Shown here: positions 6,070 through 61,745 of the stretch, in pieces
Position numbering within the stretch: the stretch's first letter is position 1
How the letters are laid out: each line of letters starts with the position of its first letter
Source of the DNA: Octopus sinensis
Lineage: Eukaryota
Direction: 5' to 3'
Length of the DNA: 64,000 nt
Assembly (NCBI RefSeq): GCF_006345805.1
Contig: NC_043016.1
Location: 7,254,001 to 7,318,000 of the forward strand
Program-made: the position numbers and the translations under genes
Notes under the pieces: generated by a model
What the model was told of the DNA's origin: nothing
What the model saw: only the letters and a program-made list of their open reading frames with translations
Databases searched by the model: none

Positions 6070-6760
6070 GTTGGTTAATTTGTCCTGGGTCAATTCATCA
6101 TTGATCAATTCATCTGCAGGTCAATTCGTCACTGGCCAATTCTTCCCCAAATACTCTTAAATGTGATTTCCGAGGGAAAGTTTAAAACAATCACTTTAGA
6201 ATCAAAATTGTCTTTAGACAGTTTCAGATACTCTCTCTCTCTCTCTCTCTTAAGGATCTGTTCTGACCAGTTTACGAAGAAAGATTTTCAAGCAAATCGA
6301 ATTTATTCAATACATTCACCCTGCAAGATCATAACTTCAGAGAAAGGAAAAATGAAAGTGGTCGATCAAGAAAATTATAGAAACACAAAAAATAAGCAGA
6401 ATGCAGATGGATTGAGAATATACAGCAGGTGTGACAATCGTGTGTGCAAGGTGAGACTTCATACAGATGAAAATTATAAACAGCTTAAGAAGATTGGGAT
6501 CCATAATCACGCTTCAACTGCTGCAGAGGTGAATGCAAGGATAATAGTTTCGAATATTAAAGTCTATTTCATCTCAAGATGTCCCTCGCTCAATTATCTC
6601 TGGTGAAGTTCAGAATTTAAATGACTCTAAATTGCTGCAAATACTTCCGTTTGCACAGCTTAATAGGAATATCAGACGTTGGAGGTAAGCTCACTCCAAC
6701 TACCCTGCCACTCCTCTTACAAATGTTGGGTTTTCCGTTCCAAGTGCTGTTACTGGGAAT
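6070..6760 (+). mobile_element. Mutator-like (MULE) transposon relic with FLYWCH zinc finger
   Basis: ORF 6163-6606 contains SEKGK...IYSRCDNRVCKVRLHT...IHNH, a FLYWCH pattern with W>S. After a frameshift it continues PRSII...LP...LNRNIRRWR. About 15-bp tandem ggtcaattc repeats at 6070-6150 resemble MULE subterminal repeats. Confidence 0.7.
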
Positions 6761-13072: not shown

Positions 13073-13081
13073 GGATCTCGC

Positions 13082-13153
13082 CTCCCCGGCGGGGAATCGA
13101 ACCCCGGTCTCCCGCGTGACAGGCGGGGATACTTACCACTATACTACCGAGGA
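13082..13153 (-). tRNA. tRNA-Asp (anticodon GTC)
   Basis: The reverse complement TCCTCGGTAGTATAGTGGTAAGTATCCCCGCCTGTCACGCGGGAGACCGGGGTTCGATTCCCCGCCGGGGAG is 72 nt and folds as a complete cloverleaf. It has the CTGTCAC anticodon loop and GTTCGATTC T-loop, and is nearly identical to metazoan tRNA-Asp. Confidence 0.97.
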
Positions 13154-13559
13154 ACTGTAATATTATAGTAATAATTATATTCTCATGAATATAAGATTCA
13201 AACTTGAATGGATGTTCAAATACTTATTCTTAAGATCTCTCCGCATTCAATCATCTTGATGTAAGTTATTCTCCTTTGTCTATTGTTTCAACCGGAACGC
13301 GTGATGATTTACCAATTCTTCAGGATGCCATACGCACACTACCGCTGATAGCTGAATATTAAACTCAGATGGAAATATTTCAATCTTGGCGATTTATTTC
13401 TGGGTTCAAAGAATGCAAACTAGGAACTGAGTTCTCTCCCTTGGCTGCGTACCGTGCATGAAAAAGCAAAAAAAAAAAAACGACGTAGAAATAAGAAAAA
13501 AAGTGGTTTCAAATTTTTACTGACAATTTTAAGACAAGGGGCTTAAGGGTGATTTCATC

Positions 13560-28300: not shown

Positions 28301-28410
28301 CTTATATATATATCTGCCGAAGCTCAATTAGATTTCGCATTTCTCCGTCTCACCACCGATTGACATCTTTCGACAATAACAGAATCCATGCATCAGCAGC
28401 GAACCTATTA

Positions 28411-29883
28411 TTAAACAGCTTCTTTGGTTTCTCGAATGATGTTTGGGCTACAGTTTGGCACCATCACATCTCCCCTGGCAGATGCTCTGGTTGTGCCGTC
28501 GTAGACCAAATTGCAATATTTCCTCTCAAGCTGAGTCAAATCCATACATTTGTTTTGAGCATCAATATCGAAGATTTTCATATAACCAGGTTTCACGTAC
28601 TCCTCTTTGATGTGTTGTTGCTGCTGCTGTTGTTGTTGTTGTGGCTGTTGATATGAAGAACTAGTTTTAGTCCCAGGATCGCTTGAGAATATATCTCCCA
28701 TGTTAGAAGCAACGGAACCGTCACCGTTTTGGTAAATATCTTTGACCTTGTTCTCATAGTAGCTATTTGCCATCACCTTCAGGGTTTCCTCTTTCATACT
28801 GTCTTTTACACTTGTAATTCCTTTTTGCTTTGTATGGTTCTCAGCCTCTTTTTGGTTCCATTGATTTTCACGTAAACTAATTAGGTTTTCGATCATCAAT
28901 TTCAGTCTGTTAGGAGTCGAATTCTCTTCTGCGATGCTTTTTAATTGAATGAAATACACATCCATTTTAAACTTCTTTCCCGTATCAAGTCTCTCACCAA
29001 TTGTATTGAACAACAGACACACACTTTCCAAACTATTCTCTGATAAAGACTGAAGCATCTTTTTAATATATTTCTGCATCGTGTTTTCCCTCAACACACC
29101 AAGTTTAAACAATTCACAAAGAAACCGAACGTTTGCTTGTGATTTCCTTTTGAAAATTTCAATATCCTTCACAAGTTCCTTTTGAAATTTCAGTTTTTCT
29201 ATATTGTTGTCGGTGTCTTCAATTTGCTGCAATTTCTTATTCAACATTGCTTCTTCAACTTGGTATTTTTCGAATTCCTTTTGACATTTCTTATTAAGAA
29301 CTTTATGGACATTCACCACTTCCTTGTGGCAGTGAATTGATGGAACTCTCTTCAAAGTCAGACACCGACATACGTAAGCATACGCCGTAGAAAGCATCGG
29401 ATCACTCGTTGCCTTTTCAAACAAAAGATTCATGATAGCTACCAATTTACTCTCTTTATCAATTTGAATATCACGTATCTGTGATAAAACGGATTTATAT
29501 TTTTCCGGTGCTAGTCTGCTTGCAATATTCTTCATTTTCGTATTAAGTTCTTCGTCCTCCGAATCATTCACATATTCATCCACAGATTTCATATTCTTAG
29601 AACATTTAAACGGTATGATGTCTCGCCGTATTTTGTTGTATTTAAGTTGCTTCGGAATTTGTGGTTTCTTGAATAATATTTCCGGTAAGTCTGGAAGTCC
29701 AACAGGTTTGGTGAGGGAAGCTTCTTTATATTGTAACTTAAGAATGAAGTCTCGGTCATATTTTAGTCTTATCTGTGAGGGTAATGGAGTTCTTTGAGTT
29801 GCTTCTTGCGTTTCTTCAGTCGACGATACATTACTGTTTGGGTAAGAATATGCATTTTCAGATGGTGAGTTCGAAAATGGCAT
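28411..29883 (-). CDS. Compact intronless eIF4G-like protein (eIF4E-binding-like motif plus MIF4G/HEAT-1 domain), 490 aa
   Basis: Uninterrupted non-repetitive ORF. KYDRDFILKLQ...SLTKPVGLP matches eIF4G RYDREFLL...SMQKPEGLP. Residues about 112-342 align with the eIF4G MIF4G domain (LLFEKATSDP..S.AYA.VCRCL; KCQKEFEK; NVRFLCELFKL; SLESVCLLFNTIGERLD; MDVYF; LRENQW). No MA3 or W2 domain is present. Confidence 0.92.
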   Translation of the reverse strand: MPFSNSPSENAYSYPNSNVSSTEETQEATQRTPLPSQIRLKYDRDFILKLQYKEASLTKPVGLPDLPEILFKKPQIPKQLKYNKIRRDIIPFKCSKNMKSVDEYVNDSEDEELNTKMKNIASRLAPEKYKSVLSQIRDIQIDKESKLVAIMNLLFEKATSDPMLSTAYAYVCRCLTLKRVPSIHCHKEVVNVHKVLNKKCQKEFEKYQVEEAMLNKKLQQIEDTDNNIEKLKFQKELVKDIEIFKRKSQANVRFLCELFKLGVLRENTMQKYIKKMLQSLSENSLESVCLLFNTIGERLDTGKKFKMDVYFIQLKSIAEENSTPNRLKLMIENLISLRENQWNQKEAENHTKQKGITSVKDSMKEETLKVMANSYYENKVKDIYQNGDGSVASNMGDIFSSDPGTKTSSSYQQPQQQQQQQQQHIKEEYVKPGYMKIFDIDAQNKCMDLTQLERKYCNLVYDGTTRASARGDVMVPNCSPNIIRETKEAV

Positions 29884-29978
29884 AATTTCTCCAATTGTTT
29901 ATAAGACTAAAATCGTAAAATGTTTGTCGATGATGTTACAGTTATAGTAGAAACCAAACGCTATTCAGTCCTGTAACT

Positions 29979-29990
29979 AATATATATAAA
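29979..29990 (-). promoter_or_regulatory. Possible TATA box about 95 nt upstream of the eIF4G-like ATG
   Basis: The - strand reads tttatatatatt. Support is weak because TA runs are everywhere in this window. Confidence 0.2.
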
Positions 29991-30808
29991 CACGGTCAAA
30001 GTATTATTATTACTAAATAAATAAAAATAATGCGACGGTTGTTAATATTATACGATAATTATGATTGTTTTTGTTGCTGGAATTTCAAAATGTTAGAAAT
30101 AACTCTCGTTGTTATTGTCGTTATTATTGTTACTGTACTATTGTAATAATTATTTTTTTTCTCTTCTTTTTTCAGATATATTTTGTTGTCAGGTTTTGAT
30201 ACAGATAAAATGTTTAACCGTGAGAGAGACAGGAAACGAATGCCAAAATCTTATCTCGTCGACACCATTAATAAACAAGAAATAAAGAAATCATTATTGT
30301 TATTGTTATTACTATTGTGTCATATATATATATACGTATATATATCAAACCATTTCTTTTCGACTTACATACCTCTTGCTTTGCCTTGAAAATTTGAAAT
30401 GAGACATTCAGCGTTCTTTCCCGAGTTAACGTATGGACGAGTCCATTTTCTATTTTATCCTATTTTATTTTTAGGGGAACGTGGAATGTACATGAAATTA
30501 ACTGACGCACGCCCACACACATACGTATACATACATACATACATACACACATACATACACACATACATACATTAACGTGAACACGCGCACACATACACAC
30601 ACGTAGTCCTATGACGTCCAGAAAATAAAATTCGAATTCTGTTAGATTTCTGAAGAATTCACGTGAGGTTCTTCAACTGTGTGTGCACGTGCATGCGCAT
30701 GCGCTGCGTAAATTTCTCTCACTAACTTACTCATTCTCTCGTTCTCTTTCCTCTCTACATGCTCGTACATACATACATACAAACATACATACATACACAC
30801 ACACACAC

Positions 30809-34442: not shown

Positions 34443-36277
34443 CACACATACACAACACATACACACACACACACCATATATATATGTATGTATGTAATGT
34501 TGTATGTATGTATGTATGTAAGTATGTATGTATGTATGTATGTATGTATGTATGTATGTATGTATGTGTGTTTGTACCCACACCATCGCTTGACAACCGA
34601 TGTTGCTGTGTTTACGTCCCCATAATTTAGACGTTTGGCAAAACAAACTGATAGAATAAGTACTAGGCTTACAAAGAATAAATCCTGGGGTCGATTTATC
34701 CGACTAAAGGCGGTGCACTAGCATGGCGGCAATCACATGACCAAAACAAGTAGAAGAATAAAAAAATTACGCCATTTAATTCCCAATCAACGCCGGGTAT
34801 CTCAGCTAGTTATTCATTAAAGCAGGCGATCCGCTTGTTTTCTTTTTCTTTCTTTTCTATCAGTATGGAAGAGTGTGCTGTATAAGTGCAAGCGACCTAC
34901 AACGTACATCTACTGGGTTGTTGGGTAAATGACCACAGAAGAAACTGTACGGTATCTTGCATTCGGTCAGTTAGGTTTACTTTCGCTTCCCACTTCTGTA
35001 TGTGTTAAAGTAAAAGACTTCCTGTTGGAGGACAACCACTTCCTTTTTTATAGAACTGCGAATTCTCCCCTTTCTGCCTGTTGTTGTAGACTTCTTATTT
35101 CTTTACTGCCCACAAGGGGCTAAACATAGAGGGGACAAACAAGAACAAACAAAGGGGTTAAGTCGATTATATCGACCCCAGTGCGTAACTGGTACTTAAT
35201 TTATCGACCCCGAAAGGATGAAAGGCAAAGAAGATTGTCTATTCATGATGCTAATGAAAATACCGATTAAAATCTCCTTTTAAAGTGTTCCCTTTTTTTA
35301 ACGAGTCCTATCTATGTCTTCCTGCAACTTGAATTGTGGTCACATGAAGTTGTTTGTGTAACTCCTTGTTGAATAATGCTTCTTCATGTTCTAGTAATTC
35401 TCGTTTTTCTTGTTTTTCCCTGCAATCACCGAGTTCAAATTCCGCCGTGATCGATATTGTTTGTGATCCTTTCGGGGTCGATAAAATGAGTAGCAGTTGA
35501 GCATTGGAGTTGATGCAGTCGAGTGTCCCCTTATCCTCAATTTCAGGCGTGCCCAATATTTTCTAATTTTTGACATAAGACCAGCAATCACATCTGCTCC
35601 AGTAACTGATTGGCATATTCGTACCCACAAAAGCTGAAAGGCAAAGTTGGCCTTGGAGTGATTTGAACTCAGAACCTAAATATTCGGAACAAATACTGCG
35701 AACAATATATTTTTTCCGACGCTTTGACGTTTCTGCCAGCATAACAGCAACAATACAACCAATCATAACAACACAGTCATTTGTTAGCGTTATGAATTGT
35801 CTGGGAGAAGGTGAAAGGAAAGGAGCAAGTAAAGGCCTTGTAGACCTGTCCAGGTATTTCCAAATATCTGACAGCTTTTATCTTGAAACTTTAGTGCGTT
35901 AATGTGGACAAATCGCACCGAATCTTTCTGTTGGTACTTAAAATTTTGAAGTAAGTCGATAGGATTTAAGGTCAAGTTGTCCACAGATTCGTGAAGTTGA
36001 CTACACTGACCACAACATCGTGATATATTAAATCAACCAAGAGAGGACCAAGAGGCAGGAGCTCATAACTAGAAGCCGAACGCATCATTCTCCGCGCATA
36101 AAGTTGTCAAAGACCGGATGACGGAATTGGTTCAGTAGGAAATGACATAGGGCGTCAGGTAGTGGGGTCTCGCTAAATAGAAAGATGCACTTTCGTAGCT
36201 TTTTTTTGAAAGAAGTAGCGGCAGAGATCATTAGAGAAGAGGAGGAGCTGGTAAATCAGTCAGTAAATCAATCAGTC

Positions 36278-36691
36278 AAACCAATTCTACTATATGGCTC
36301 AGAAACCTGGACGTTATCTAAGAAGCTTGAGAGGCGGTTGGATGTAACTTACACTCGCCTCCTTATGAGAGCTCAAAATCTCTCGTGGAAGCGTCATCCA
36401 ACCAAAGTACAAATATATGGGAAACTACCACCTGTGTCATCTCTTGTGAAAGGTAGAAGAGTCCAGTTTGCTGGACATTGTTGTAGAGATGAAAACGAGG
36501 TAATTTCTTCTCTTCTCCTCTGGAAGCCATCTGCTCGCGATGCCAGAGGGCGCACACTCTCCTACCCTGATGTAATCTCCAGGGATACAGGCTTCCAGCA
36601 ACAGGACCTCCGTAATGCTATGATGGACCGTGAAGTCTGGTGTAAAATAGTAAATTCCATTGTCTCGACCACGGTCGAACAATGATGGTGA
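36278..36691 (+). mobile_element. RTE-clade LINE, 5'-truncated 3' end with an open frame
   Basis: PILLYGSETWTLSKKLERRLD...LLMRAQNLSWKRH...RRVQFAGHCCR...LLLW...AMMDREVW is a typical RTE ORF C-terminus. Confidence 0.9.
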
Positions 36692-60879: not shown

Positions 60880-61745
60880 AATAATAGGAAGGTTATCAGA
60901 GAAAGGAGTGCCTGTATGTGGAAGATGCGTAGGAGCCAAAGAAACTGGATACTCAAGAAACTGATCTTCTCAAATACCTCCGAGGCTCTCTAGAGGTTGT
61001 GGCCAAATTAGTAGTTGGAGATGTACGGAGAGTGCAATAGCTAGAATATAAATGGCTTGGCTTGGTTTATTGGTTTCTTATTTCTTTACTGCCCACAAGT
61101 GGCTACACACAGAGGGGACAAACAAGGACAGACAAACTGATTAGGTCGATTATATTGACCCCAGTGTGTAACTGGTAATTCTTTAATTGACCCCAAAAGG
61201 ATGAAAGGCAAAGTTGACCTCGGCAGAGTTTGAACTCAGAACATAGCGGCAGATGAAATTCTGCTAAGCATTTTGCCCGGCATGCTAACGTTTCTGCCAG
61301 CTCGCCACTTGGTTTATTGGTTTCATGCTCTTGGTTGATGTGGCTGGGGCCATTTCAAGTTAGTGGTCTTAGAGGCATCATCATGCATTGAGCTGACCAG
61401 GTCCATCAGTGCTCTCCATCACCGGTGGCCCTTTACCAGCTCCTCCACATCTTCCAAGGTGATGTTGTACCTCTGGAGATCTCCAATCATGAGTGAAAAG
61501 AGAAGATTGTATGATACATATATACAAACAGCAATTATACATGGTACTGAGTCATGGGTCCTGAATGCAGAGGATATGCGGAAGCTCAAGAGGAATGAGG
61601 CTAGTATGCTCTGCTGGATGTATAATGTAAGTTATATGTTCAACAGAGTGCTAGTGTATTGAGAGAGAAGCTAGGCATAAGAGAAATTAGATGTAGTGTG
61701 CAAGAGAGAAGACTGCACTGGTTTGGTCACATGATGCAGATACAT
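60880..61745 (+). pseudogene. RTE LINE relic split by a SINE
   Basis: GSLEVVAK...CTESAIARI*MAW, then KRRLYDTYIQTAIIHGTESWVL..EDMRKLKRNEASMLCWM, then RRLHWFGHM. Confidence 0.75.
61078..61307 (-). mobile_element. SINE family 'A' with 17-bp TSD
   Basis: cttggtttattggtttc is present on both sides. Confidence 0.88.

Follow-up and report, generated by a model that had tools for sequence, protein, structure and literature searches.

Can a copy of the initiation scaffold eIF4G that is pared down to an eIF4E-binding region and one MIF4G domain be a working gene, where would it have come from, and what could it do? These questions are raised by a single-exon open reading frame (ORF) of Octopus sinensis that lies within a 64,000-nucleotide stretch of contig NC_043016.1 (assembly GCF_006345805.1, positions 7,254,001 to 7,318,000; hereafter the window, whose numbering we use for coordinates). 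The ORF occupies 28411..29883 on the minus strand and runs from ATG to stop over 490 amino acids (aa; protein P0001) with zero internal stops. We refer to it as mini-eIF4G. On the evidence below it is very probably a functional retrogene, one that appears to have kept its eIF4E-binding region while residues at its eIF4A-contact sites changed.

The surroundings of mini-eIF4G consist of microsatellites and transposon remnants, among which it is the only long non-repeat frame and, once simple-repeat frames are set aside, the longest frame of the window; the intact 490-codon ORF among decayed repeats described in the original prediction is thus borne out. Three kinds of match identify the MIF4G/HEAT1 domain, which had been placed at aa 112-342 (28858..29550, minus strand): a Pfam MIF4G match at aa 116-340 (E 3.5e-31), matches of human eIF4G1 PDB chains to aa 99-352 (E 1e-48, with DAP5 at E 4e-17), and a fold search with the AlphaFold model, whose top match is the eIF4G HEAT1 chain 8huj_B (E 1.3e-15). 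The model has a mean predicted local distance difference test score (pLDDT) of 63.5, is confident in the MIF4G domain and low in the remainder, and the MIF4G fold is predicted to be intact. The protein gives zero Pfam matches to MA3, W2 or KH (at E<=1 for MA3 and W2), an in-frame stop lies five codons 5' of the ATG, and merely 41 aa precede the eIF4E-binding-like motif. A tblastn search over 264 kb around the ORF found no N-terminal, MA3 or W2 remnant of eIF4G; this search was used in place of a genome-wide MA3 search, which was insensitive and missed the parent gene's own MA3. These results uphold the earlier claim that the long N-terminus, MA3 and W2 are missing, and no MA3 or W2 exons lie elsewhere within the 264 kb.

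The comparison with full-length eIF4G points to retroposition. A full-length gene is found on the same contig (C20) at 27.95 Mb, 20.7 Mb from mini-eIF4G at 7.28 Mb and on the opposite strand. It matches the Octopus bimaculoides eIF4G, which has the 4E, MIF4G, MA3 and W2 modules, in 26 pieces at about 90%; the O. bimaculoides full-length models (P0030 and P0169) measure 1565-1569 aa. Nine exons of the C20 gene join into 427 stop-free codons, and the eight intervening introns fall inside the span aligned to mini-eIF4G, mapping after P0001 aa 73, 85, 112, 157, 177, 226, 252 and 304. Three of these eight introns are confirmed as GT..AG joints by RNA contigs, and mini-eIF4G has none of the eight (0/8). 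Because all eight parent introns are missing from the ORF, we infer, in agreement with the original prediction, that mini-eIF4G is a retrocopy of an intron-bearing eIF4G. The C20 gene is the most likely source of the copied mRNA, and a coleoid ancestor the likely setting. Over about 285 columns, the mini proteins (octopod and cuttlefish-type, described below) have an identity of 41.5-43.3% with the C20 gene and of 32.3-33.0% with a second eIF4G type, on contig C25, and they group with the C20 gene at supports of 84/90 to 92/91. An origin beside the C25 paralog is not rejected in the approximately unbiased (AU) test (p-AU 0.28), which weakens the case for C20 as the parent; both genes are multi-exon, however, so the source had introns either way. 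DNA-level similarity between mini-eIF4G and the parent is no longer detected, as expected of an old copy, and no poly(A) remnant or target-site duplication is recognisable among the flanking simple repeats.

Four sets of contigs (X17, X1, X2 and X19) cover the mini-eIF4G ORF without joints. Among the sets listed as containing the ORF, none is catalogued as RNA. The X17 contigs span 28656-30285, the X1 contigs cover 28320-28606 and 28656-30135 with a sole break that is the skipped polyQ repeat, and X2 contributes one 1562-base contig over 28322-29896. X17 and X1 represent RNA, since the parent gene is present in them with its introns removed and the introns uncovered; their RNA nature is shown for these two sets and not for X2 and X19, and the contigs give no strand. 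The X1 and X2 contigs cross the stop codon, which for those runs answers the concern over splicing to exons further on that the original prediction had raised. The stretch 29884..30285 (minus strand), covered without joints by contigs that also span the ORF, is the likely 5' UTR (untranslated region), and 28320..28410 (minus strand), reached by contigs crossing the stop codon, is the start of the likely 3' UTR. On the coding strand the 377 bases upstream at 29884-30260 hold zero ATG, as would suit a 5' UTR; shuffled versions average 4.4, and 7 of 2000 of them have zero. Contig depth is higher for mini-eIF4G than for the parent (634 vs 95 in X17, about 1000 vs 43 in X1), figures that we do not use as an expression ranking because depth cannot rank genes and the runs were chosen for holding the mini gene. 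The sets X21-X24, which bear the species label of the best holder, have nearly no words of the ORF, and X21 and X22 contain the spliced parent; this is evidence neither of absence nor of tissue restriction. We further note that X19 has a loose end at 30380 that matches neither the window nor the genome, so that it reveals no upstream exon, and may be an allele, and that 30150-30290 on the plus strand has a pyrimidine tract, an AG near 30176 and a later AATAAA, resembling a terminal exon within the leader; the contigs show no joint there.

Both the differences within the ORF and its orthologs speak for constraint. The 37 listed ORF differences comprise 34 synonymous and 3 non-synonymous changes (against 287 synonymous and 1183 non-synonymous sites), with 35 at third codon positions; the count is partial, 40 of 80 difference rows being shown and none of those shown falling in the first 113 codons. 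All six listed indels lie outside the ORF, in the flanks, and the non-triplet ones sit in the start of the likely 3' UTR. The 90% cluster of P0001 includes 490-aa proteins from O. vulgaris and O. bimaculoides that depart from it by 1 and 2 residues, and Argonauta hians has an ortholog of 488 aa (74-76% identity) with the same start and end. Judged from this pattern of change, mini-eIF4G is under purifying selection, and the suggestion that the ORF is kept open by selection is sustained by the intact orthologs. Identity to Argonauta is uneven: 34/36 (94%) in the 4E region (aa 40-75), the best-conserved part of the protein, 204/231 in MIF4G, 27/36 in the linker, 49/64 in the C-terminal segment, 38/84 in the proximal tail (aa 343-426) and 15/39 in the N-terminus.

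The gene had been taken to be lineage-specific; it is probably not confined to octopuses. A profile search of 1.84 billion representatives returned, among the best 150 listed, a 361-aa relative whose cluster includes a Sepia pharaonis EIF4G, and there is a second cuttlefish-type relative of 365 aa that is 86% identical to the first. In both, a short N-terminus leads into a perfect YX4LL motif, a short linker and MIF4G, and the protein ends two residues past the last Trp of the domain. Linker shortening is similar in the octopod and cuttlefish-type proteins and an N-terminal SPE motif is common to them; their tails differ, and their MIF4G domains are 38-40% identical. One cuttlefish-type protein, P0167, derives from a 21.7 kb ENA contig, which hints at one genomic ORF but goes no further, and a metagenome scan for cuttlefish-type loci found none. 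The octopod and cuttlefish-type minis form one clade with a support of 98 in a FastTree tree of 157 rows and of 100/99, 99/99 and 99/98 under the LG+C20 model on 24, 17 and 20 rows, sets that were hand-picked from the 157 and favour rows near the parent. As the cuttlefish-type proteins group with the octopod minis, mini-eIF4G likely predates the split between octopus and cuttlefish. Octopods and decapodiforms separated about 270 million years ago.

The eIF4E-binding-like region of mini-eIF4G is bipartite and spans aa 42-73. Its first part is the canonical-type motif YDRDFIL (aa 42-48; 29740..29760, minus strand), the only 4E-motif match in P0001, and its second part (aa 59-73; 29665..29709, minus strand) aligns with the region of eIF4G1 that makes the non-canonical 4E contact (PDB 5t46 and 6zmw). 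The human eIF4G1 4E-binding peptide in 5t46 matches aa 28-74 (E 2.8e-4). The motif at aa 42 thus stands as the original prediction had it; the spacing to MIF4G is 70 aa and not about 65, compared with about 125 aa in the full-length paralog, and an Ile at the Leu position of the YX4L-phi consensus had been overlooked. This IL ending is found in 1 of 69 regex-matched background proteins, and P0001 gives no match to PF21140. The cuttlefish-type minis have YNREFLL, a perfect YX4LL, with weak PF21140 matches. Docking of mini-eIF4G on eIF4E through canonical and non-canonical motifs is likely.

A different picture is seen at the surface by which MIF4G contacts eIF4A. Three eIF4A sites have been described on eIF4G, with Trp579 as the site-3 contact (PMC9177959). 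Yeast N615 and K837 correspond to DAP5 N86 and R295 (PMC10746786), the DAP5 substitution N86A abolishes eIF4AI binding and spares eIF3 binding (PMC4402527), and F978A breaks the high-affinity eIF4A site of eIF4G (PMC3074137). Positions of these residues in our alignment were inferred from PDB chain offsets. P0001 has zero Trp from its start to aa 342, Ser122 at the Asn86 position of DAP5, and Leu329 at the Phe978 position of eIF4G1, which is Val in Argonauta and Ser in the cuttlefish type. The linker (aa 76-111; 29551..29658, minus strand) is about 54 aa below the parent length and holds zero Trp in all four minis, so the site-3 Trp is absent under any alignment. By this alignment, key residues are changed at all three eIF4A-contact sites. 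In the 144 background MIF4G regions, by comparison, all of Trp, Asn and Phe are kept in 94, none in 7, and 14 have a gap; among rows with MA3 or W2 all three are kept in 62 of 72.

The change is concentrated in this surface. Of the 95 columns that are at least 70% conserved in the background, 88 are kept in the parent, 50 in the octopod mini and 57 in that of cuttlefish, and 24 are altered in all four minis. Within the contact patches 16/22 conserved columns are altered in P0001 as against 26/68 elsewhere (p 0.005), with 17, 16 and 15 of 22 altered in the other minis and 1/22 in the parent; the patches were drawn after the conserved-column result was known, so these p values are post hoc and descriptive. 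Within these limits, the losses of conserved columns in the alignment are clustered at the eIF4A interface.

Past MIF4G the protein has a weakly conserved tail (aa 343-426; 28606..28857, minus strand), which holds a remnant of the parent's post-MIF4G linker and then a polyQ run (aa 412-423; 28615-28650, minus strand), followed by an octopod-only C-terminal segment (aa 427-490; 28414..28605, minus strand) that is conserved, has pLDDT<50 and is predicted to be disordered. The tail of about 150 aa had been reported as unrecognised and with polyQ. The polyQ is confirmed, and the tail is not wholly unrecognisable, since aa 307-406 align to the parent's last MIF4G exon and adjoining linker at 31% identity. 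The segment at aa 427-490 gave zero matches in homology searches, atlas matches all being below 0.9, and a tblastx comparison of the tail with the parent locus found zero source for it.

What could such a protein do? We tentatively propose, with slightly less belief than doubt, that it is a paralog which binds eIF4E, is blind to eIF4A, and represses or stores capped mRNAs by competing with eIF4G. In a coleoid ancestor the mRNA of an eIF4G gene, with C20 as the most likely one, would have been reverse-transcribed, and the bipartite motif of the copy's product would bind eIF4E. Binding of eIF4A would be lost; the PABP site, the second eIF4A site in MA3 and the W2/MNK site would not be carried because their domains are absent, and of the eIF3-binding linker a decayed remnant at most would be left. 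With eIF4E occupied and neither the helicase nor eIF3 brought, such a protein would be a competitor of eIF4G. The MIF4G domain is strongly conserved, and thus would bind something else, RNA or another protein; the retained fold could be a platform that chooses target mRNAs. 4E-T and Cup are analogues for such target-selecting repression. The specialised cap-binding complex of the original prediction, read as a working mini-scaffold, fits less well, as the changed eIF4A-site residues point to an eIF4A-independent or repressive role. A stronger version, for which we see some room and more doubt, is a natural dominant-negative eIF4G, kept since before the split of octopus and cuttlefish, that binds eIF4E, selects mRNAs for storage with a re-surfaced MIF4G domain, and acts in some limited tissue, for example germline or nervous system; placing it in the germline is a conjecture drawn from flies. 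An intact intronless eIF4E partner was found in none of 14 genome matches.

Several observations weigh against the repressive reading. The Ile-for-Leu change of the octopod motif could, from its sequence, weaken eIF4E binding. Lys328 retains the basic residue of yeast K837/DAP5 R295, and P0167 retains the Asn in one alignment. The published mutants are changes to Ala, and the natural ones (Asn to Ser; Phe to Leu, Val or Ser) are milder. As DAP5 N86A keeps eIF3, eIF4A loss alone does not imply repression.

Some of the same facts are what an activating role would predict. Mini-eIF4G might be a specialised activator that, bound to eIF4E, recruits ribosomes to a subset of mRNAs with no eIF4A, through a weakened eIF4A site, or with another DEAD-box helicase; it could act through eIF3 as Mextli does, or as a minimal scaffold resembling a caspase fragment of eIF4G. 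We regard this as possible and rather unlikely. Its MIF4G fold is predicted intact and closely conserved in Argonauta, Lys328 and Arg326 are kept, and the behaviour of DAP5 N86A (PMC4402527) suits it, as do the caspase fragments of eIF4G, which retain 4E, 4A and eIF3 binding (PMC12709193), and the testis eIF4G2 of flies, a required paralog (PMC5354226). Altered key residues at all three eIF4A sites speak against it, as does the fate of the eIF3 site, located some 100 aa beyond MIF4G (PMC12709193). The cuttlefish-type proteins, ending two residues after the domain's last Trp, have no such region, and in octopods it ranks with the least conserved parts (38/84). The protein might also have become a MIF4G adaptor whose 4E binding is weak or vestigial and whose new partner sits on the MIF4G surface or the C-terminal segment. 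SLIP1, CTIF and Paip1 would be its analogues. The Ile in the octopod motif, the 24 conserved columns altered in all four minis and the conserved yet unmatched C-terminal 64 aa would suit such an adaptor, which is nevertheless quite improbable given that no part of the protein is better conserved from Octopus to Argonauta than the bipartite 4E region as a whole, and that the cuttlefish-type proteins retain a perfect YX4LL and weak PF21140 matches.

Alternatives also bear on what kind of gene this is. The octopod and cuttlefish-type minis could have arisen independently and been joined by long-branch attraction and parallel decay. Both branches are long and the tree tool warned on their join, MIF4G identity is low and the tails differ, the trees are without decapodiform full-length eIF4G, and without the cuttlefish rows the octopod mini is not placed beside the parent and falls in an invertebrate polytomy; a limpet, moreover, has an independent paralog without MA3 and W2. 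Set against these points are the clade supports under LG+C20, the similar linker shortening and common SPE motif, and an AU test that rejects the octopod mini and the C20 parent as a clade (p 0.009; seven rows were dropped from its tree, including two of three long ones and an incomplete O. bimaculoides model). Further, 22 and 24 of 105 rare octopod-fixed states are common to the two cuttlefish-type rows, as against a maximum of 12 and a mean of 3.6 in 144 background rows, although some of these states also occur in the parent. Two origins are thus unlikely, and the sequences make a single origin of the octopod and cuttlefish-type minis probable. Scarcely tenable, and largely refuted, are the readings that the ORF is a processed pseudogene without function or that it is a single large exon belonging to a longer eIF4G gene. 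An identity of 41% to the parent MIF4G and the lost interaction residues could be decay, but Octopus and Argonauta both have the ORF intact, between the same start and end, and 34 of the 37 listed differences are synonymous; as for a partial exon, contigs cross the stop codon and other eIF4G exons are absent in 264 kb.

Comparison with known members places mini-eIF4G in the eIF4G family by descent, as its alignment to metazoan eIF4G1/eIF4G3, here the C20 gene, indicates: a bipartite 4E region is followed by MIF4G, with 41.5% identity over 289 columns. It departs from canonical members in lacking introns, the long N-terminus with its PABP site, MA3 and W2, in its shorter linker, and at the eIF4A-contact residues (the W579, N615/N86 and F838/F978 equivalents). 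4E-T, Cup and the 4E-BPs occupy eIF4E via canonical and non-canonical motifs without eIF4A, and by analogy, judging from the architecture of mini-eIF4G, theirs may be its mode of action; homology to them is limited to the motif, whereas mini-eIF4G carries a real MIF4G. The off-schedule eIF4G2 of Drosophila, which is large, retains the C-terminal domains and has a positive role, is likewise a lineage-specific eIF4G duplicate with divergent termini, and is the nearest precedent for a specialised one; the cephalopod gene, by contrast, is a two-module retrocopy. The Drosophila protein is reported to be testis-enriched and needed for meiosis (PMC5354226), and the 4E-BPs to compete with eIF4G (PMC4573856). 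Mextli, an invertebrate protein, also unites 4E-binding motifs with a domain of MIF4G type and is a competitor of eIF4G (PMC4573856), but it has KH and C-terminal 4E motifs and activates via eIF3, while mini-eIF4G descends directly from eIF4G; an identity with Mextli is ruled out by the absence of a KH match and by the sole 4E motif being N-terminal. DAP5/NAT1/eIF4G2, another shortened family member with MIF4G, is the mirror image, without a 4E site and keeping eIF4A binding, MA3 and W2. As had been stated earlier, mini-eIF4G is not DAP5: its 4E region is present, MA3 and W2 are absent, the DAP5 match is weaker, and a separate DAP5-like gene is found on contig C24.

Lineage-specific eIF4G paralogs are already known (fly eIF4G2, plant iso4G, DAP5), and a shortened copy would by itself cause little surprise. 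The unusual feature is the combination, an eIF4E site that is near invariant beside a remodelled eIF4A surface, the family's most conserved feature, under strong purifying selection, in a gene that spans octopods and probably cuttlefish. If eIF4E is bound without eIF4A, an initiation scaffold would have been turned into a regulator by retroposition, offering a specific, testable handle on translational control in cephalopods. The plain database label eIF4G1 hides this pattern. An 'EIF4G1', which may be this gene or another paralog, has served as a candidate quantitative PCR reference in O. vulgaris (PMC5736919). By title and abstract, none of the literature covered on eIF4G in octopus, cuttlefish, squid and cephalopods or on cephalopod retrogenes describes the gene, with most subscription journals outside this coverage; it is apparently undescribed. 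The two-module cuttlefish-type relatives and the altered residues at all three eIF4A sites are newly found here.

Shortened paralogs occur elsewhere too, which makes truncation as such less surprising. The limpet Patella vulgata has P0042, P0158 and P0159, which carry a 4E motif, have annotated isoforms with either one MIF4G or two, and are without MA3/W2; their first MIF4G lacks both the NKLT stretch and the Trp. This paralog may be a parallel case or an error of the gene model. Teleost P0006-P0010 are eIF4G1/3-like and contain MIF4G in two or three tandem copies; some of them have changes at each of the three eIF4A-site residues. These residues are decayed in several of P0042/P0158 and P0006-P0010, which are database gene models and fall on tree branches separate from the minis.

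Octopus has at least three eIF4G genes plus DAP5. The second multi-exon gene (C25:3.569-3.592 Mb) has the 4E motif YDRDTLL, MIF4G, MA3 and W2, keeps its eIF4A-site residues, shares about 50% identity with the C20 gene across MIF4G and the 4E region, and sits on a long branch; its relative P0088 is 1055 aa long and begins just ahead of the 4E motif. The O. bimaculoides models P0030 and P0169 are without the last MIF4G exon, which is present at C20:27965696-27965993 and spliced in RNA contigs, so that an assembly or annotation gap is likely. The small contigs C8907, C8594, C9480, C12600 and C7755 are gene-dense and carry eIF4E-like genes, and others that we take to be UPF2-like and CWC22-like, all broken by very short gaps; they have the appearance of a second organism's DNA within the assembly more than of pseudogenes of octopus.

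Elsewhere in the window, a tRNA-Asp(GTC) gene is found at 13080-13154 (minus strand). A 175-aa frame at 6079-6606 (plus strand) has a weak FLYWCH match (E 0.001) below the cut-off and is probably a transposon remnant. The frames at 36146-36685 and 61339-61662 have no Pfam match and are presumably remnants of long interspersed nuclear elements, judging by their appearance.

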